From assembly GCA_026066175.1 (NCBI GenBank), contig GCA_026066175.1_4721.2: DNA of 64,000 nt; one strand, written 5' to 3'. This DNA comes from a phage. Position 1 is the stretch's first letter, and every line of letters begins with the position of its first letter. Shown piece after piece: positions 1-9,323 of the stretch. The position numbers and the translations under genes are program-made. A model generated the notes under the pieces. The model was not told the origin of the DNA. It saw only the letters and a program-made list of their open reading frames with translations, and did no database searches.

Positions 1-61
1 ATTGCCTCATTTCTGACTCCTCGTATCGTATCAAGGTAAGGCTTCCTTGCCGTTCCTGGGT

Positions 62-2107
62 TTACCCGTTCATTCCTTTCACGTGATGTGCAATTTCTTC
101 AACCATTGCACGCAAAGCACGGAGCTGTTGATCATGTTCGTACCAACCGCCTAACAGAACCCCGCTATACACCATGGTGTCAAGACTTAACAGCCCTTTA
201 TCTGATACGTTGATCATTTCCGGGAACTGTTCTTGAACACGCTGTGCGATAACACCGATCTTCTCGACATCAGGATCGTAGTTGTGACGGAAACGGGCAA
301 GTCCGGTATACGCCATTTCACGTAAACGATCACTGAAAGATTCCGGATGATCTTTCAGATAACGAATGTCATGTTTACTACGTTCATCCGAGCGAATGTA
401 AGCGTTAGGAACATCGATATTGCTGTTGAAGTACAGCGCACTACCACCGCCTGCAGAGTTCCCCCAATAGAAGCGTGTGATCTCACCGCCACCATTCTCC
501 GTGATGATGACATGTTTACCTAAACGCGTACCACCACTACCATCAACGAAGACCAGTTTGTTTCCGCTGTAAGAACCCCAGAACAAACGTGTATCGATGA
601 TGTGCGTTGCAGCGAGGCGGGCGTTACGTGGTGTAGAATACACGGTGTTAACATCTTGCTGCGCTTGCGCATCGGAAGCGATACCATAGTTCTGTACGTT
701 ACCTAACCCAACCTGCGCTTTCGTAACAGCATGTGGGTTGTCTCGACGGTTAGCGTGAGCGTTAACCAGATCACCCGCTAATTTCTGGATTGCCCAGTTG
801 GTAGACTGTGGCGTCATGTAACGGTTCGTCGCAGAACCACCTTGCGCTTCAGCTTGGTTAGCGGTTGGATAGTTCTCAACGCTTCCCAACCCTACTTGTG
901 CCTTAGACACTTGGTGTGGGTTGTTCTTGTCGGCGATGTGCGCATTAAGCGGAACTAACGCAAAGGTCTCAATGGACGCTTTGGTTGTGTTCGGTGCCAT
1001 TAATCGGTTAGCTGCAACACCGGCACGCGCTTCTTCTTCAGAAGCCATCGGATAGTCTTGCACATTCCCTAACCCAACCTGCGCTTTGGTTACTCTGTGT
1101 GGGTTGTTGTAATCGGCTTTATGTGCATTAAGTGGAATCAATGCGAACTGTTCAATCGCTGCAACAGTGCGTAGCGGCGTCATGAAACGGTTGTTCGCTG
1201 TTCCGGCTTTCGCCTCATCATCCGAAGCGGTCGGGAAGTTATCAACGTTCCCAAGGTTAACCTGTGCTTTGGTGACGCTATGCGGGTTGTCTCGACGGTT
1301 AGCGTGAGCGTCGACTAGATCACCCGCCAGTTTAGCAATCGCCCATCCAACCGTTTGTGCCGTCATGTAACGGTCAGGTGCAGTACCGGCTTCTGCCTCC
1401 GCCTTGTTGGCGGTAGGATAGTTCTGTACATTACCTAGTCCGACTTGGGCTTTTGTTACTTCATGCGGGTTATCGGTACGGTTAGCATGTGCGTAATGCA
1501 GATCGGTAAGGTCTTTATCCGCCGCTTGCATGTCTTTACGTAGCTGATCGATTGCCGCCCAGAGACGGTTATCGGACGCAGCATCACCGATGAGTATTGC
1601 GGCTTTTAACGAATAGATCGCTAAGCAAAGATGTTCGGTACCGTAAATCGCGCTAACGTGGTGGATGTGTGGTTCAGGCGGATAAAGTTCCGGTTTGTTC
1701 TTGATGTCGTCCCAGTTGATCGGACGATCGTCAAGTTTGAGTTCTTCGATAGCCTGATATAACGCGTCAATAAGACTTACGTAAACACCACCGATGATAC
1801 GATAGTCGTTAACTAATGTGCCCTCGATATCATCGTTGATGATGGCGATGGCTGCACAGATTTCTTTACCTGCGTAAAGCGTTGCATCCTGATACAAGAA
1901 AATGGGTTTATAATCCACGCCTCGTACCAGTGTCTTACCGGTAAGCTTTTCGGTGATGACCAAGCTTTCGGTGAAGAACGGTCCGCCATCAAGGGCGTAG
2001 CATTTATTCTCGGTTCGTGGAACGGTATGCTCTTCACCAACGATGTGGTTGCTATCGAGTGTACCGGTCCAGTCCTCGGGGTACTTCAGGGTAATTGGTG
2101 TTGACAT
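62..2107 (-). CDS. tail fibre protein with tandem fibre repeats and C-terminal self-cleaving intramolecular-chaperone-like domain
   Basis: 681-aa ORF with ATG start. About five ~60-aa tandem repeats (H-A-x-N-R-x-D-N-P-H-x-V-T-K-A-Q-V-G-L-G-N-V-x-N-Y ... E-A-x-A-G-T-A-x-x-R-Y-M-T-P) typical of phage tail-fibre repeats. C-terminal ~110 aa contains SDERSK, resembling the Ser/Lys autoproteolytic motif of endosialidase/L-shaped-fibre chaperone domains (peptidase S74 type). Confidence 0.75.
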   Translation of the reverse strand: MSTPITLKYPEDWTGTLDSNHIVGEEHTVPRTENKCYALDGGPFFTESLVITEKLTGKTLVRGVDYKPIFLYQDATLYAGKEICAAIAIINDDIEGTLVNDYRIIGGVYVSLIDALYQAIEELKLDDRPINWDDIKNKPELYPPEPHIHHVSAIYGTEHLCLAIYSLKAAILIGDAASDNRLWAAIDQLRKDMQAADKDLTDLHYAHANRTDNPHEVTKAQVGLGNVQNYPTANKAEAEAGTAPDRYMTAQTVGWAIAKLAGDLVDAHANRRDNPHSVTKAQVNLGNVDNFPTASDDEAKAGTANNRFMTPLRTVAAIEQFALIPLNAHKADYNNPHRVTKAQVGLGNVQDYPMASEEEARAGVAANRLMAPNTTKASIETFALVPLNAHIADKNNPHQVSKAQVGLGSVENYPTANQAEAQGGSATNRYMTPQSTNWAIQKLAGDLVNAHANRRDNPHAVTKAQVGLGNVQNYGIASDAQAQQDVNTVYSTPRNARLAATHIIDTRLFWGSYSGNKLVFVDGSGGTRLGKHVIITENGGGEITRFYWGNSAGGGSALYFNSNIDVPNAYIRSDERSKHDIRYLKDHPESFSDRLREMAYTGLARFRHNYDPDVEKIGVIAQRVQEQFPEMINVSDKGLLSLDTMVYSGVLLGGWYEHDQQLRALRAMVEEIAHHVKGMNG
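670..1525 (-). repeat. in-frame ~180-bp coding tandem repeats inside the fibre gene (diverged copies)
   Basis: Repeated NPHxVTKAQVGLGNVxNY peptide units are visible in the translation; the DNA copies are recognisably related but diverged (for example ...gtgtgggttgt...gcattaagcgg/tgg...). Confidence 0.6.
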
Positions 2108-2120
2108 AACCTGGAGGTCC

Positions 2121-4718
2121 TTATAACGTGACTGTACCTAATTTGGTTGTCTTATTGAGATTAATGACAGATATCTGGGTATCGCTGGTCGTGATGGTGC
2201 CAATATTAACGCGCTGTCCTTTATCATCCTCTTGCTTGTGGATGGTTAACTCCAGCTCTAACTGGTTACCGTTAGGAACAACGGAAACGTACCATGTTTT
2301 ATTACCCGGGAAGCTATTATAGTCTTTTAGGTTATAATGGCCTTTAGGTAAGGTCATGACCTTACCGGCAAACAAGCAAGTGATGTCTTCGTTGACGTAA
2401 ACGTCGAAACCGGAAGAAGCGATGACTGTTGAGGTCATTATTCGAGACGTAACCATATCAGTAATGTAGTCATCGATTGTGGTACCTATGACATTGAATA
2501 CTTGCCCACCGTTACCCATAATGGCCGACTCGCTAGTGTTTACGTAGCCGATACCCCAAGTCGGATGAATGTTCCAGCGGTACCCACTGTTTTGTAAATA
2601 TGTATACATGTCCTCATAGGCCGCATTCACCCAACTACCATCACTTTTTCGTCCAGCCCTAAATTGGAATGTGTTGCCATTTCCAGATGTCCCTCGGCCA
2701 AGCGGGACATGTCCCGCTACTAACCAACCATCCGTACTTTGCATATATGCGAACGAACCGTACGCTCTGTTATCAGCCCAAATATTCACGGTATCAACAC
2801 GCTCAACGTAGGCGATTACCTTTTGTACGCCAGTTATAGCGATTGAACCCTTGCGTGCCGACACATTAACTTCTGCGATTACAACACCCATTTTACGCTG
2901 GCTGCCACTAAACCCCAATACAACCATTAAACACGGTGCGTTTGTTGCTTCAGGAGGGATTGTTATCGATTGTTTCCAGTCAGTGATTCCGTTGAGTTTT
3001 GTTCCAGTGTATGCGTTCCAGACGGTTTGTCCAGCCGATTTCAGATTCTGTTCAGAAATAGAAATGCTATCGCCCTCAGGGATTAACGTGTCGTAATTAA
3101 GACCGGTGTTACTGGATAGACGATTGTCATTTAAGTAAGATCCACTGAGTGTGACGTTATTGTTACGATATATTGTCAAGAATGGCGCAGCCAGAGCGTC
3201 TAATACCGTAAAGTTACTTGATGGCATGAAACCATAGACATCGATACCATTACCGCGATAATGGTAGTTTGTCCAACTACCTTGATAACTTACGGTACGC
3301 CCATCGTAGTGACCTTGTCCAGCGCTACTGCTAGACAACGTGTATATCTTGGTTGCTGATAGAAATGCGAGATACCCATGAGCCGCCAAAGCTCCAACAA
3401 CCCTGTCTTTTATCTTTAACCAAGCTGAAGTATATAACGTACTGTCGGGATTCATTTTGGCTATTTCATCGTAAGCTGTGCCTGCGAAGTTTCCGATAGT
3501 GTACGTACGTATATCCGGCTGTCCGTTATTGTCGTTCTGTACAGCAATTACTTGCCCAGAATCATTGATATCGATATTACCGATACAGTTGTGAGCCCCC
3601 CACACCCAATATCCATCTTTATAATTGGATTCTCCTTGTGTGAATGTTGATGGTCCTCGCCACGCGATGCCGTTCGATTCGGCGTAGTAGGTCGCTTGCC
3701 CCGATCCGGGATTCATGGCGTATTTGTTATTGGTTGGGTCAAAATCGATGTAAAAATGATGCATTCCTTGACGTTGATGATTGTTCTGATCATTTGTCCA
3801 CCACGATGAACCGACCAGAATTCGCGCTTTACCATTTTTTACAGTGGACCATAAACGTATTGCAGCGCGCCAGATGATTTGACCGATCCCGTTAGACGGG
3901 AAACTATTCGCACTTATACGGTTACAGACTATGAGTTCGCTGCTATTGTTTACTTGAGTCCCTTCAATTGTAACACCGTTTATGTTAGTGATCAGTGTTG
4001 CCGATACACTACCCCCTGTAGGGGCGATAGAGGAACGTTGAACGGTGTAAATTTTTAGTGATAATTTATAGCCGTCCCTAACAGCAATCCCAATGTAAAT
4101 AGTCCCGTTAATTTCCCAACAACAAACATCGGGCATCGTTTCTTTGAAATCGGATAAAGCACCATCGATATACATTGCAACGTGTTTACTGGCATCGAAT
4201 GTACCATCCGTTAACGCGATGAACATTTTGGCGTTATTACCGTTGATATCAGCCGCTAATCCGAGTAGTATGTTGTTCTGATGACAGTAGATGGCTTTAG
4301 GTGCTAGATCCAACATAGCCGGTTGGTACTGTCGGCTTGTCGGTATTACGCTAGTAACTGCACCATTTTGATCCGTTTTACAAATAACGTAATATACGCC
4401 ATGTATGATGCTGTTTGTCGCCGACCTTAGTAGGACAATCGTCCCGTCAGATTCACGACATATACCGTAATGACGATAGTCGGTGATTAAGCCGATAGCA
4501 CCATCAGCAGAGCCTTCAATTGCCAGAGGAAAATAACTTTGGTCCCCAACCTGTTCGATATCGGTTACGTCGATATCGATGTATTTTTCCATCTCAGTGT
4601 TGAACTCAGCGGTACTGTAGGCACCGAGATCGCTCGCCTTTAGTCCCGTTGGGTTGTCGCGACTGGCGATACGCGTAGTAACGCTACTCACCAGTTCGCT
4701 GAACTTTTTCATTGCCAT
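2121..4718 (-). CDS. large tail fibre/tailspike-like protein (putative receptor-binding protein)
   Basis: 865-aa ORF inside the fibre cassette. N-terminus (SELVSSVTTRIASRDNPTGLKASDLG) carries the same RDNPxxVTxAQ-type motif as the neighbouring fibre genes, followed by a large non-repetitive domain. SD gaggtg 5 nt upstream of ATG. Confidence 0.55.
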   Translation of the reverse strand: MAMKKFSELVSSVTTRIASRDNPTGLKASDLGAYSTAEFNTEMEKYIDIDVTDIEQVGDQSYFPLAIEGSADGAIGLITDYRHYGICRESDGTIVLLRSATNSIIHGVYYVICKTDQNGAVTSVIPTSRQYQPAMLDLAPKAIYCHQNNILLGLAADINGNNAKMFIALTDGTFDASKHVAMYIDGALSDFKETMPDVCCWEINGTIYIGIAVRDGYKLSLKIYTVQRSSIAPTGGSVSATLITNINGVTIEGTQVNNSSELIVCNRISANSFPSNGIGQIIWRAAIRLWSTVKNGKARILVGSSWWTNDQNNHQRQGMHHFYIDFDPTNNKYAMNPGSGQATYYAESNGIAWRGPSTFTQGESNYKDGYWVWGAHNCIGNIDINDSGQVIAVQNDNNGQPDIRTYTIGNFAGTAYDEIAKMNPDSTLYTSAWLKIKDRVVGALAAHGYLAFLSATKIYTLSSSSAGQGHYDGRTVSYQGSWTNYHYRGNGIDVYGFMPSSNFTVLDALAAPFLTIYRNNNVTLSGSYLNDNRLSSNTGLNYDTLIPEGDSISISEQNLKSAGQTVWNAYTGTKLNGITDWKQSITIPPEATNAPCLMVVLGFSGSQRKMGVVIAEVNVSARKGSIAITGVQKVIAYVERVDTVNIWADNRAYGSFAYMQSTDGWLVAGHVPLGRGTSGNGNTFQFRAGRKSDGSWVNAAYEDMYTYLQNSGYRWNIHPTWGIGYVNTSESAIMGNGGQVFNVIGTTIDDYITDMVTSRIMTSTVIASSGFDVYVNEDITCLFAGKVMTLPKGHYNLKDYNSFPGNKTWYVSVVPNGNQLELELTIHKQEDDKGQRVNIGTITTSDTQISVINLNKTTKLGTVTL

Positions 4719-4730
4719 TATTCACCTCGA

Positions 4731-5216
4731 TTAAATAGGCGAGTCGGGAAGCTGACCATCATCGATCTCGATGGCGGCCACCTTACGTGTTGCAGCAAGA
4801 TGCGATGTACCCTGGACTTTGTTCCAGGTACCGATACGCATGGTGTTTTTGTAGCTGCCATCGCTATCATTCAGCGTGTAAACAAAACCACGATCGGTTA
4901 CGGCAAGATAGATCCAGCCCACAGACTCACTGATACCAGACACATCCAAAGTCGTTGCTGGTACTGTCCCTACCATCGTGTTGTATTCCGCTGTACCTTG
5001 ACCAATGCTGATCTGCCCGTTGCTGTAACTGGCTGCCGGAAGCGTTTTATTTCGGCTGAAGAAAAGAAACGGAAGGTAACGCTGAGTAACAAGCGGTGCA
5101 AGTTTAGGAGCCACTTCGGTCTTAACGTAGACATTTGTTTGTGCTGGCGTTACCTCGTGAGGGTTCTTTTGGGTGAGATACGCTCCCCATTCAGAAAGCA
5201 ATGTTGATAGCTTCAT
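4731..5216 (-). CDS. small fibre-module protein (fibre-associated, function unknown)
   Basis: 161-aa ORF; N-terminus LSEWGAYLTQKNPHEVTPAQTNV shares the fibre N-terminal motif; 4-12 nt intergenic spacing with flanking fibre genes. Confidence 0.5.
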   Translation of the reverse strand: MKLSTLLSEWGAYLTQKNPHEVTPAQTNVYVKTEVAPKLAPLVTQRYLPFLFFSRNKTLPAASYSNGQISIGQGTAEYNTMVGTVPATTLDVSGISESVGWIYLAVTDRGFVYTLNDSDGSYKNTMRIGTWNKVQGTSHLAATRKVAAIEIDDGQLPDSPI

Positions 5217-5220
5217 GCGG

Positions 5221-5736
5221 TTACCCCATGTAACGTTTTTGGCCGAGGATGAAGACTTTGTTGAATACCACTGAAGTGATTCCTGATGCGTTACAGCTCA
5301 CCTGCCCGACACGAATTGCTGTTGATGTATCGACCCCAGCACTACTCTGCCAACTCCAATCAATCGATCCGTCTTTCTGACGAATGAAAAGATAACCGGT
5401 TTTGTTCGCCCAGTCAGAAGTAAGATTTTTGATATCTAGCGTTCCTTTCGCCAGAATATAGTCGGTACCCGCAATCATGACAGGTATTTCAGGATACGAG
5501 ATGGTTGTGCCACTGGTGGTAACACCGCTGATGCGATCGGTACGGGTATCGGTGCAGTCACCAAAGTAAGCAACGGGTAATACCCCTTTGGGAAGCTTTT
5601 GGGCGATTCTTGCATCGACGGCGTTTTTGTCGGGTGCGTCAAGCTGGGCAGCGGTAACCTGATTCGGGTTATCCTTTCTTGCGTACCACGCTGTCATGCG
5701 AGCACCCAGTTCACTCATTTTTGTGCCCATTTTCAC
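5221..5736 (-). CDS. small fibre-module protein (fibre-associated, function unknown)
   Basis: 171-aa ORF; N-terminus MSELGARMTAWYARKDNPNQVTAAQLD shares the fibre N-terminal motif; SD aggatg upstream. Confidence 0.5.
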   Translation of the reverse strand: MKMGTKMSELGARMTAWYARKDNPNQVTAAQLDAPDKNAVDARIAQKLPKGVLPVAYFGDCTDTRTDRISGVTTSGTTISYPEIPVMIAGTDYILAKGTLDIKNLTSDWANKTGYLFIRQKDGSIDWSWQSSAGVDTSTAIRVGQVSCNASGITSVVFNKVFILGQKRYMG

Positions 5737-5740
5737 ATCC

Positions 5741-5782
5741 TATCGAAAAATAAAAAGAAGGAAGGGTGGGTAGAACCCACCC
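5741..5782 (-). terminator. intrinsic terminator downstream of fibre gene 5788..7941
   Basis: Hairpin gggtggg-tagaa-cccaccc (5764-5782) followed on the minus strand by a T-rich tract (plus strand aaaaataaaaagaaggaa, 5745-5763), starting 5 nt after the stop codon. Confidence 0.65.
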
Positions 5783-5787
5783 ATCCG

Positions 5788-7941
5788 TTATAGCGTTTCG
5801 AAGTCTTTTGCCTTGATGACCGACTGGAAGTTCGCCAGGAATTCTTTCAACAACGCTTGGAATACCGTGCGGAACGCTGTATTCTTCTGCAGACTGGTTA
5901 GATAATCGTTAGCGAGATAATCGCTAAGCTTACCGATCTTCTGCATCTTCTGACCGTCGTCGTTCTCTCCGGGTTCTTGGCTGTTAACGTTAGCCCATTT
6001 GATCCCTTCGAGATCGCCATCGGCAAGGAAGTTAGCCGGGGTTTCATCATCGTTCAGGATCTTAATCGTATCGCTGGATTCGATGCCACCGTAAGCTTCC
6101 AGAAGCTGGTTAACCGTCAAGGTATTCGTGTTGATGGAACCATTAGCACCATCGATGCCGATACCCGTACCGGTAATCGTGGTTGCAGAAAGATCAATCG
6201 GACCGGTTAACTTACCACCGCTGATGGGTAACGCACCGACCTGCGCAGCCGTGTGGGTGTGGTTAGCCAATGCCGCAAATGCCGCAATAGACTTGTACGT
6301 CGAATACGGCGTCATGTACGCGGTCTGGTTGGTGTTATCAGCAGCTTGAACGTCGGTTGCAACGCTGAAGTTCTGAACATTCCCTAAACCAACCTGATCC
6401 TTCGTGACTTCGTGTGGGTTCGTTTTATCGACAACGTGTGCTGCAAAACCATCCCCAGCCAAAGCGATAATCGCCGCTTTCGTTGCTGCCGGTGTCATGT
6501 AACGATCTGCCGCTGTACCAGCTTGCGCTTCAGCATCCGATGCAACAGGATAGTTACCAACATTCCCTAATCCGACTTGAGTTTTAGTAACCTCGTGCGG
6601 GTTGTTGGTGTTGGCAATGTGACTGCTGAAACCTTGACCCGCCATTTGTTCGATAGCATAACGAACCAACAGTGGTGTCATGTACTTGTTCGTGACCTGA
6701 CCGTCGATAGCTTCCTGAGTGGTTGCGATACCGAAGTTTTGAACGCTTCCTAATCCCACTTGGGTCTTGGTGACGTTATGCGGGTTGTTGGTATCAGCCA
6801 GGTGTTGTGTTACTGTCGGGGTAATCAATGCAGCAATAGCATCCGCCACCAATGCAGGTGTTACGTATTTGTTCGTTGCCGTACCGGCTTTCGCTTCCGC
6901 GCTCGTTGCGATACCGTAGTTTTGGACTGAACCCAATCCTACCTGTGCCTTCGTAACACCGTGAGGGTTACTCTTGTTTTCGGTATGCGAGGTTAACGAG
7001 GTGTTGAGTGCATCAATACGCGCGCTTAAGCCATCGGTGATTGCTTTGATTGCTGCTTTCACCCCTGCTGGGGTTGTGTACAGGTTGGTTGCTGTTCCGG
7101 TAACAGTTGTAGTGCTGTCAGCAACACCATAGTTCTCAACACTCCCCAACCCTACCTGGGCTTTTGTTACCTTGTGTGGGTTGTTAAGGTTACTGATGTG
7201 TGCAGCAGCGCTATCACCGCTCAGGTTAGCGATCATTTTACGGGTCATCGCTAACGTCATGTACAGGTTTTCACCGATGCCGTCAAGATCGCTTTCGGTA
7301 GCCAGACGGTAGTTTAATACGTTTCCTAGCCCCACCTGCTCTTTCGTCACCCCATGGGGATTGTCACGACGTTTCTCGTGTTGCAGCAATGCGGTCATTG
7401 CTTTATTGAACCCTTCTTCCAGGGGTTCTCTCAATGATTCAATTGCAGCAACCACGTCATCCCACGTCATTGTGTCGGTTTCGACATTATGTTGGTGGTT
7501 GATTGGCGGGAATACGGAAGGAACGTCGGCAACCTTTTCCCAGAACGTCACACGGGGATCGTAAAGGTTGTTGGCTAGAACGTTAAGAATTTGTTGTTGA
7601 TCAAGTGTAAACTCACCCCCCAGTGAATAGTAGTTCAGTTGCAACTGTCCACTGAATGCGGTATCCAACAGCATGATGGAACCGTATAATTCCAGGCCGG
7701 TCAGCGCAGCCATGGCACGGAAGGGGTGAGTGCATAAAAAGTCAACGCCTTCTTCCAGATACGCGTTTGTCTCCGGGTTGTAGATCTTTAACCCATTACG
7801 AAAATATGGCGCGTATTTAGGAACGAGAAAGTTAAATCCGGTCCCCGTGGAAGGACGGACAGTGACGAGTTCTTCTGGAACCCATGCGCCATCCAAATTC
7901 CCCTGCGGGTTATACGGAAGGCGTTTAATTTCATCTGTCAT
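5788..7941 (-). CDS. tail fibre protein with tandem fibre repeats
   Basis: 717-aa ORF; at least six copies of the NPHxVTKxQVGLGxVxN(Y/F)...AGTAxxxYxTP repeat. Its N-terminal ~170-aa domain is related to that of 62..2107, and it has a distinct C-terminal domain (HTHTAAQVGALPISGG...). SD-like aaaggg upstream. Confidence 0.75.
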   Translation of the reverse strand: MTDEIKRLPYNPQGNLDGAWVPEELVTVRPSTGTGFNFLVPKYAPYFRNGLKIYNPETNAYLEEGVDFLCTHPFRAMAALTGLELYGSIMLLDTAFSGQLQLNYYSLGGEFTLDQQQILNVLANNLYDPRVTFWEKVADVPSVFPPINHQHNVETDTMTWDDVVAAIESLREPLEEGFNKAMTALLQHEKRRDNPHGVTKEQVGLGNVLNYRLATESDLDGIGENLYMTLAMTRKMIANLSGDSAAAHISNLNNPHKVTKAQVGLGSVENYGVADSTTTVTGTATNLYTTPAGVKAAIKAITDGLSARIDALNTSLTSHTENKSNPHGVTKAQVGLGSVQNYGIATSAEAKAGTATNKYVTPALVADAIAALITPTVTQHLADTNNPHNVTKTQVGLGSVQNFGIATTQEAIDGQVTNKYMTPLLVRYAIEQMAGQGFSSHIANTNNPHEVTKTQVGLGNVGNYPVASDAEAQAGTAADRYMTPAATKAAIIALAGDGFAAHVVDKTNPHEVTKDQVGLGNVQNFSVATDVQAADNTNQTAYMTPYSTYKSIAAFAALANHTHTAAQVGALPISGGKLTGPIDLSATTITGTGIGIDGANGSINTNTLTVNQLLEAYGGIESSDTIKILNDDETPANFLADGDLEGIKWANVNSQEPGENDDGQKMQKIGKLSDYLANDYLTSLQKNTAFRTVFQALLKEFLANFQSVIKAKDFETL
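6339..7389 (-). repeat. in-frame coding tandem repeats inside the fibre gene
   Basis: Repeated ~45-60-aa units are visible in the translation of 5788..7941. Confidence 0.6.
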
Positions 7942-7973
7942 GATGCGCCCTTTACAAGTTGTTAGTAAGTGTG

Positions 7974-7991
7974 GGATACCCTGGGGTATCC
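7974..7991. promoter_or_regulatory. 18-bp near-perfect palindrome GGATACCC-TG-GGGTATCC in a divergent intergenic region
   Basis: 8-bp arms that are exact reverse complements, separated by 2 nt, located between the divergent starts at 7941 (minus) and 8046 (plus). Candidate operator or bidirectional regulatory hairpin. Confidence 0.4.
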
Positions 7992-8045
7992 TGTGTTAAC
8001 AGCGGTAAAATATTACTGTAACTATAAAATAAGGGGGCCTCTCCC

Positions 8046-9323
8046 ATGTATACATTGGTAAAAACTTACGGATTACCCGTAGGTTCCGGCACGGCCTGGA
8101 CAGCACTTGAAGCGGGTGAAAGCGTCCTGAGCACGTTGTTCGCAACGTATCAAAAACTCAAGATCCAGGTCCATGAAAGCTATACTGACCAGCAACAGGT
8201 TATCGATCTTTATACGTTTCAATCCGAGCTTCAAAACAGCAGCGATACGCTTAATGCTTGGCTGAAAGCGAAGTCGGATGCCCACACCAACCTTCGTGGT
8301 CAACCGGGTGAACTCTCGATTAAAGCCCACAAGCTTTATTGTCACGACGTTATCACGGTAGGCTTTCTTCCTAAAGTCGGTAATAGCGGCTATCATCCAA
8401 GCAACGCGATTCCTGAATCGGAACGTACCGATATTCTCCTAACAAAAGCAAACACGAATTACGAGAACATCGGCAAGCACTGCTTGTTCACGGTAGGGGG
8501 TTACGTACACCCTCACGTTTACGGTAAGGATGTTGGTGTCTATATCCAAGGCGGATTCAAGACAGCCCAACGCAGCCAGGAAAACGATATCGGGATGATC
8601 GATTTCAGCCGTATCGGAAGTTTGGAGATTCATGCGATCACAGAAGACATGATTGCGGATTCCACGAAGCTTTTACCGTACAAAGATGAGATGTATTTAC
8701 GCTTACCCCGTAAAGTTGCGGAAGATGAAACGGTTGCATTGGTGTTCGGAGGCTACTTACATCTCCTCGACGACTGTTACACGATCGTTAGCGATACGAC
8801 AGCAAAAATAAACTGCATCAACATGTTCTTGTACGAAAGGTATTTTCGTTCCCGTGAGTATCTTGACTTAACCTCCCTCGGTATTCTCTTGGACGAAGAA
8901 AACCCACAATCGGATATTGTTGCGAACCGTTTGCTGTCCGATAAAGCCTTGAAAGCCTGGGTGACCCATCCTTGCAGCTTTTGGGTTTATATCAAAGCAA
9001 CCTCGATTCAAGTTACGCAAGAACCGTTACCGCGCAGTGGCGTACCAGGACAGTATTTCTTAGGTAAGAAACCGGAAGGATTAATTCGCGCGGATCTTGG
9101 AGAACTGCCCGCGTACGTACAGACTTACGAGAAACCATTATGGGTACTTCATTCACGATGGGGACTTCGTAAGAACATGCTGTTTGAAAACACGTTATAC
9201 AAACACACACGTGTTAAACGCCTCAATGATACACCGTATCTCCATCAGGTGTGGTTGGAAACGCATGCGACGTTACAAACCGTACACAAGCTGGAACTGA
9301 TCGATTCCAGTCAGAAAAAATAA
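8046..9323 (+). CDS. hypothetical protein
   Basis: 425-aa ORF on the plus strand; SD aaggggg 5-6 nt before ATG; tataaaat box about 20 nt upstream; ends 16 nt before hairpin element copy 1. Confidence 0.7.
   Translation: MYTLVKTYGLPVGSGTAWTALEAGESVLSTLFATYQKLKIQVHESYTDQQQVIDLYTFQSELQNSSDTLNAWLKAKSDAHTNLRGQPGELSIKAHKLYCHDVITVGFLPKVGNSGYHPSNAIPESERTDILLTKANTNYENIGKHCLFTVGGYVHPHVYGKDVGVYIQGGFKTAQRSQENDIGMIDFSRIGSLEIHAITEDMIADSTKLLPYKDEMYLRLPRKVAEDETVALVFGGYLHLLDDCYTIVSDTTAKINCINMFLYERYFRSREYLDLTSLGILLDEENPQSDIVANRLLSDKALKAWVTHPCSFWVYIKATSIQVTQEPLPRSGVPGQYFLGKKPEGLIRADLGELPAYVQTYEKPLWVLHSRWGLRKNMLFENTLYKHTRVKRLNDTPYLHQVWLETHATLQTVHKLELIDSSQKK

Follow-up and report, generated by a model that had tools for sequence, protein, structure and literature searches.

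Predicted autoproteolytic S74 chaperone on one of two paralogous tail fibres of a Goslar-like jumbo phage

How do two phage fibres built from the same repeat come to have such different ends, and what would this mean for their maturation? The question is raised by a 64,000-nt stretch of phage DNA (GCA_026066175.1, contig GCA_026066175.1_4721.2; hereafter the window) that encodes two such fibres near its start. One of them, here called fibre A, was originally predicted to end in a self-cleaving intramolecular chaperone, and the other, fibre B, to lack it. Positions 1-8000 of the window match the nucleus-forming jumbo phage Escherichia phage vB_EcoM_Goslar at 88% nucleotide identity over 81% coverage, and no other entry matched among the 50,697 phage records searched with this region. 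The answer proposed here is that fibre A is very probably a homotrimeric tail or baseplate fibre of a Goslar-like chimallivirus, made with an S74 chaperone and matured by its release, and that fibre B has no cleavable cap.

The fibre A gene (62..2107, minus strand, as are all fibre A features given below) is an intact ORF of 681 aa plus a stop codon at 62..64. It is the orthologue of Goslar gp025 and falls into PHROG tail and virion structural families. The protein begins with an A-type N-terminal domain. Five 61-aa (183-nt) repeats follow in tandem (629..1507), with H..x..NPHxVTKAQVGLGNVxNY as their head, and then come a tip and the S74 chaperone. The tip module of the mature fibre (residues ~494-572; 392..628) is G-rich with beta-strands and is joined to the S74 domain as one cassette. 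The Peptidase_S74, or C-terminal intramolecular chaperone, domain spans S573-G681 (109 aa, 12.6 kDa; 65..391) and is predicted to be released by self-cleavage. Within it, the predicted nucleophile and P1' residue is Ser573 (389..391), and the predicted general base is Lys578 (374..376), five residues further on. The role of Ser573 is assigned by analogy with Ser1264 of the T5 fibre pb1; there, the Ser1264/Lys1269 pair has the same i/i+5 spacing, and S1264A abolishes cleavage (PMC4690869). The scissile bond is predicted to be Arg572-Ser573. A conserved G-V-I-A(-Q) core motif of S74 (G618...A621; 245..256) aligns with GliAQ in S16 gp37 and GviAQ in MyRF. The domain closes with a long alpha-helix (residues ~644-680; 68..178), modelled by AF2 as helix 148-184 of the fragment with pLDDT 83-97, which is presumed from the pb1 and endoNF structures to be a trimeric coiled-coil element.

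Is the C-terminus of fibre A genuinely an S74 domain? The string on which the original prediction was based, ...NAYIR|SDERSKHDIRYLKDH..., is present, and the ~100 residues said to follow the Ser number 109, Ser573 counted. With Ser573 at 389..391 and the stop codon at 62..64, the interval 62..400 put forward for the feature therefore correctly brackets a real S74 domain. Sequence, profile and fold evidence agree that this C-terminus belongs to the family of Ser-Lys autoproteolytic intramolecular chaperones, as had been proposed. First, Pfam Peptidase_S74 (PF13884) matches residues 573-631 over profile positions 1-56 of 58 (E=7.7e-6, 26.6 bits), above the curated gathering cut-off of 22 bits, and S16 gp37 (6f45) is matched in a single-sequence phmmer search of the PDB (E=0.0044), with SDERSK aligned to SDRRIK. 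Second, an alignment was made of C-termini from 16 divergent homologues found in a full-length A-type search (15-24% identity to the query); word-indexed searches with either C-terminal module alone returned Goslar-like fragments only and were unfit for alignment building. S573, D574, K578, G618 and A621 are invariant (17/17 aligned A-type C-termini), and the catalytic pattern S-D-x-R-x-K reads S573-D-E-R-S-K578 in fibre A. When the profile of the 17 C-termini was run against the PDB, strong matches were found to S16 gp37 (6f45, E=4.2e-25), the MyRF ICA (7dc3, 1.3e-9), a tail fibre (8jov, 8e-9) and the GA-1 neck-appendage chaperone (3gud, 3.7e-6). Third, AF2 modelling from this alignment gave pLDDT 80-97 for most of the domain and predicts a mixed alpha/beta fold that closes with a long helix, here of 37 residues, like 3gw6, 4uw8, 3gud and 7dc3. 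The Ser-to-end span is 98-121 residues in 20 homologues versus 109 in fibre A, and the extreme C-terminal location is as the family expects (~100-135). At the level of sequence and modelled structure, the domain identity, the catalytic residues, the fold and the difference from fibre B can be regarded as established for fibre A.

How much of this is new? The S74 call on fibre A is correct and was already known, because Goslar gp025 (YP_009820710.1, HOV27_gp025), which shares 98% amino acid identity with full-length fibre A, the same SDERSK and the same neighbourhood, carries the GenBank note "conserved domain Peptidase_S74 pfam13884". The corresponding NCBI protein cluster is named "tail fiber domain-containing protein", with PF13884 precomputed. 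Both the S74 family and the way it works are textbook knowledge for phage fibres, and what is added below, a conserved A/B split and a cassette boundary, is incremental. Korf et al. 2019, who reported the Goslar genome, name Peptidase_S74 for other phages only, and gp25 and gp29 are absent from their peptide-fingerprint table. Self-cleavage is discussed neither there nor in the 2026 Goslar cryoEM preprint (10.64898/2026.04.21.720040). Between fibre A and Goslar gp025 there are 12 substitutions, of which four lie in the chaperone domain; the last three residues also differ. Codon changes relative to Goslar in the S74 domain are 10 synonymous versus 4 non-synonymous, and the domain is under purifying selection. 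Across the cluster, fibre A is 95-97% nucleotide-identical to Goslar against an average of 88% over the 8-kb region, and protein identity is only ~90% in the C-terminal module of fibre B, so the fibre cluster is mosaic in its divergence. This mosaic pattern is consistent with host-range selection on fibre B and the genes that lie between the two fibres.

Fibre B, the orthologue of Goslar gp029, is encoded at 5788..7941 (minus strand; 717 aa). Its N-terminal domain is B-type, and the 61-aa (183-nt) repeat occurs six times, versus five in fibre A. The original prediction described it as a paralogue sharing the fibre A repeat and lacking the chaperone, and both points hold: it is 37-48% identical to fibre A across the N-terminal domain and repeats, and S74 is absent, with no match in Pfam at E<=0.1 and none with a custom S74 HMM. 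A recent tandem duplication can be rejected as the origin of the pair; the repeat copies are only 62-73% DNA-identical, and the A/B split is older than the Goslar-PCH45 divergence. The C-terminal module of fibre B (residues 559-717; 5791..6267, minus strand) opens with a degenerate repeat head, NHTHTAAQVG, which is followed by the motif ALPISGGKLTGPIDL, then a stretch rich in G and T, and finally a helix-prone tail. This end had been called "HTH-containing, G/T-rich". The letters H-T-H-T are indeed there (residues 560-563), and a 67-residue stretch contains 16% G and 16% T versus 8% and 10% protein-wide, but there is no helix-turn-helix: N-H-T-H-T-A-A-Q-V-G aligns as a degenerate N-P-H-x-V-T-K-A-Q-V-G repeat head. 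In homologue searches the module is confined to Goslar-like sequences, and searches of the PDB and NCBIfam with fibre B gave only noise. An AF2 model of the module from a three-sequence alignment had pLDDT 36 and was unusable.

Is the asymmetry between the two fibres peculiar to this phage? When the best 120 homologues were sorted by N-terminal domain into A-type (85) and B-type (33) fibres, S74 was found in 21 of the 85 A-type fibres, with 64 lacking it, versus none of the 33 B-type fibres. Six A/B pairs each seem to come from a single contig, and in all six it is the A-type fibre that carries S74. Adjacent genes were verified for two of these pairs (L002 and L004): the A-type gene with S74 follows immediately after the B-type gene, and a divergent ~415-aa gene lies in front. 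The gene order in Serratia phage PCH45 (gp30-like, B-type, gp28-like, gp26-like, one extra gene, A-type with S74) matches that of the window. On these comparisons, the A/B asymmetry in S74 is ancient and conserved.

Where does the exchangeable part of fibre A begin? The closest non-Goslar A-type fibres are 61-64% identical to fibre A up to residue ~493 and unrelated beyond it. The tip and S74 domain are found together again in the jumbo phages PCH45 and SPLA10 (38% identity) and, among T-even-like phages, in the gp37 distal fibres of CC31, Slopekvirus and others (26-31% identity). The gp37 alignments begin at fibre A residue ~504, and the similarity to the gp37 proteins of S16, CC31 and Slopekvirus thus extends well upstream of Ser573. 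Judged by these alignments, the tip and S74 domain form a swappable cassette that starts near residue 494 and is common to T-even-like gp37 fibre tips. Other jumbo-phage A-type fibres (e.g. P0070, P0017, P0079 and P0116) carry other C-terminal modules, including the GP38 adhesin (PF05268), PF19388, PF22337 and PF21722. The A-type scaffold appears to serve as a general carrier on which receptor-binding tips are swapped. One homologue, P0035 (NCBI N5V60_23390, a partial protein on a 1.4-kb contig of an E. coli assembly), is chimeric: its start is near-identical to fibre A residues ~103-352, and from within a repeat (...GLGNVQD|FAVATD...) it continues as the final repeat and C-terminal module of fibre B. 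Either A and B recombined naturally to produce it, or short reads were misassembled across the repeats.

How might fibre A mature? Trimerisation, chaperone action and cleavage are what the S74 family would predict for it by analogy. Fibre A would be made with its 109-residue C-terminal S74 chaperone behind the N-terminal attachment domain, the five-repeat shaft and the short G-rich tip. Three chaperone domains would associate via their long C-terminal helices, as in K1F endosialidase, T5 pb1 and S16 gp37, and this association would nucleate and register the folding of an interdigitated trimeric tip. Once the tip has folded, Ser573, activated by Lys578, would cut the Arg572-Ser573 bond. The cut would free a 12.6-kDa fragment and leave a mature chain of 62.1 kDa, with the tip exposed for binding to a receptor or partner. 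Fibre B would use the same repeat scaffold with an unrelated, lineage-specific end module. Because that module is unrelated and would stay on the virion, fibre B must presumably trimerise without a cleavable S74 cap. It is reasonable to infer, as did the original prediction, that the two fibres differ in their routes of trimerisation and maturation.

Is the chaperone released from the virion protein? An improbable alternative is that the S74 domain of fibre A is genuine but remains in place as a permanent C-terminal cap, acting as a non-cleaving chaperone or a structural knob. The proteomics table for Goslar virions, in which gp25 is labelled "Tail fiber", would agree with a retained cap in that it gives a full-length mass for gp25, with 59% coverage, but the mass is theoretical (10.64898/2026.04.21.720040). 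A retained cap would also agree with the lack of an obvious folding sensor. In endoNF and pb1, an Arg/Asp sensor has been described upstream of the cleavage site; the Arg comes from the neighbouring subunit, doubles as the oxyanion hole and sits within a triple-beta-helix or interdigitated tip. In fibre A, no upstream Arg is invariant in the S74 alignment, and the pre-cleavage part of the monomer AF2 model has pLDDT <50. Weighing against a retained cap, Ser573 and Lys578 are both invariant across the family alignment, and as far as is generally known, an intact Ser/Lys dyad accompanies cleavage in every characterised S74 protein (endoNF, pb1, GA-1, S16 gp37 and MyRF).

The virion peptides would also weigh, though not significantly, against a retained cap, within the part of Table S4 that covers peptides A..ELK. 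In the range A..ELK, gp25 could contribute 2 possible chaperone-domain peptides and 19 expected mature-region peptides. Eight of the 19 mature-region peptides are present in that range, and neither chaperone-domain peptide, DHPESLSER or AM(ox)VEEIAHHVK, was found there; because only 8/19 of the former were seen, 0/2 of the latter is not significant. The extreme C-terminal gp29 peptide ATDFETL is present in Goslar virions in the same part of the table. These peptides fit a trimmed fibre A and an untrimmed fibre B, in a comparison that is statistically weak. Tryptic data cannot reveal the neo-C-terminus of fibre A because the P1 residue is Arg572.

A second alternative accepts cleavage and concerns the function of the tip. 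In T2/S16-type fibres, gp38 docks on processed gp37, and the cleaved tip of fibre A might likewise not be a receptor binder itself but a platform for a separate adhesin. The closest solved relative of fibre A is S16 gp37, with similarity that runs upstream into the gp38-docking tip; the A-type homologue P0070 carries the GP38 adhesin domain; and the mature tip of fibre A has only ~79 residues per chain. However, a sequence search found no gp38-type adhesin gene in the 64-kb window (tblastn with CC31 gp38, best E=0.95), a difference from the gp37 and gp38 system, and the next gene downstream of gp025 in Goslar encodes an endolysin. A docked adhesin on fibre A is quite unlikely. The last alternative, that the fibre A C-terminus is an unrelated coiled-coil tail matched by chance or low complexity, could draw on the modest single-sequence Pfam and phmmer scores given above and on the single close homologue from a word-indexed search, but it has almost no probability left and is refuted by the alignment, profile and fold results. 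Release of the S74 chaperone from a trimeric fibre A is the preferred reading.

What lies between and beside the fibres? Three intervening genes (2121..5736, minus strand) are co-directional with the fibre genes, and the N-terminus of each corresponds to half a fibre-repeat copy. They encode proteins of 865 aa (2121..4718; Goslar gp026; half-repeat TRIASRDNPTGLKASDLG), 161 aa (4731..5216; Goslar gp027; half-repeat AYLTQKNPHEVTPAQ) and 171 aa (5221..5736; Goslar gp028; half-repeat AWYARKDNPNQVTAAQ). The C-terminal ~85 aa of the 171-aa protein and the C-terminus of the 865-aa protein match one and the same PHROG region. Genes like gp28 and gp26 hold the same position in PCH45. Upstream of fibre B lies a divergent gene on the plus strand (8046..9323; 425 aa, PHROG 3337), which corresponds to Goslar gp030. 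A gp030-like gene is placed likewise in PCH45 and in two metagenomic jumbo-phage contigs, and is therefore a conserved partner of the fibre cluster. In the Goslar virion, gp25 and gp29 are present at ~87 and ~75 copies, respectively, versus ~13-14 copies for gp026, gp027 and gp028; gp030 is present at ~18 copies (10.64898/2026.04.21.720040). In the same preprint, gp25 and gp29 are counted among the unmodelled proteins of the peripheral baseplate or tail fibres, and no chaperone is mentioned.

The half-repeats could be docking adaptors onto the fibres. A broader proposal, possible if unlikely, is that the two fibres and the three intervening genes encode one conserved, branched host-recognition assembly in the unmodelled peripheral baseplate of chimalliviruses, in which the half-repeats (..DNPxxVTxAQ..) insert into the A or B shaft and S74 maturation unmasks a T-even-like tip. 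If this proposal is true, the A-type scaffold would be a general "socket" for receptor-binding cassettes that jumbo phages swap, with or without a chaperone.

What are the practical implications? First, mature fibre A should be modelled as residues 1-572 (62 kDa), not 681. Second, the chaperone should be kept in constructs for recombinant receptor studies. Third, host-range engineering and the reading of unmodelled peripheral baseplate density may both benefit from the conserved A/B split and from a cassette boundary placed near residue 494. The practical value lies in annotation and structural work on Goslar-like phages, and the result would not surprise a specialist in phage tail fibres.

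How does fibre A compare with known systems? In PCH45, the 576-aa A-type protein YP_011108443.1 aligns with fibre A along its entire length at 34% identity, tip and S74 domain (YIRSDIRVK) included. It lies at the end of the same cluster and is shorter, with fewer repeats than fibre A; the PCH45 cluster has one extra 353-aa gene, and all of its genes are annotated "hypothetical protein". The chaperone of the T5 L-shaped tail fibre pb1 (4uw8) is larger, at 133 aa versus 109 aa in fibre A. The domains upstream of the chaperone in pb1 and in the K1F endosialidase CIMCD (3gw6) are unrelated to fibre A, in which no Arg sensor was found. The MyRF ICA (7dc3) is part of a eukaryotic membrane-tethered transcription factor, and its likeness to fibre A is limited to the chaperone and autoprocessing module. 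The gp37 proteins of S16 (6f45), CC31 and Slopekvirus share more with fibre A, S16 gp37 being its best solved relative. Here the homology takes in both the tip strands before the cleavage site and the complete S74 domain, whereas the T-even gp37 shaft and N-terminus are wholly unlike the chimallivirus 61-aa repeat scaffold on which fibre A carries them.
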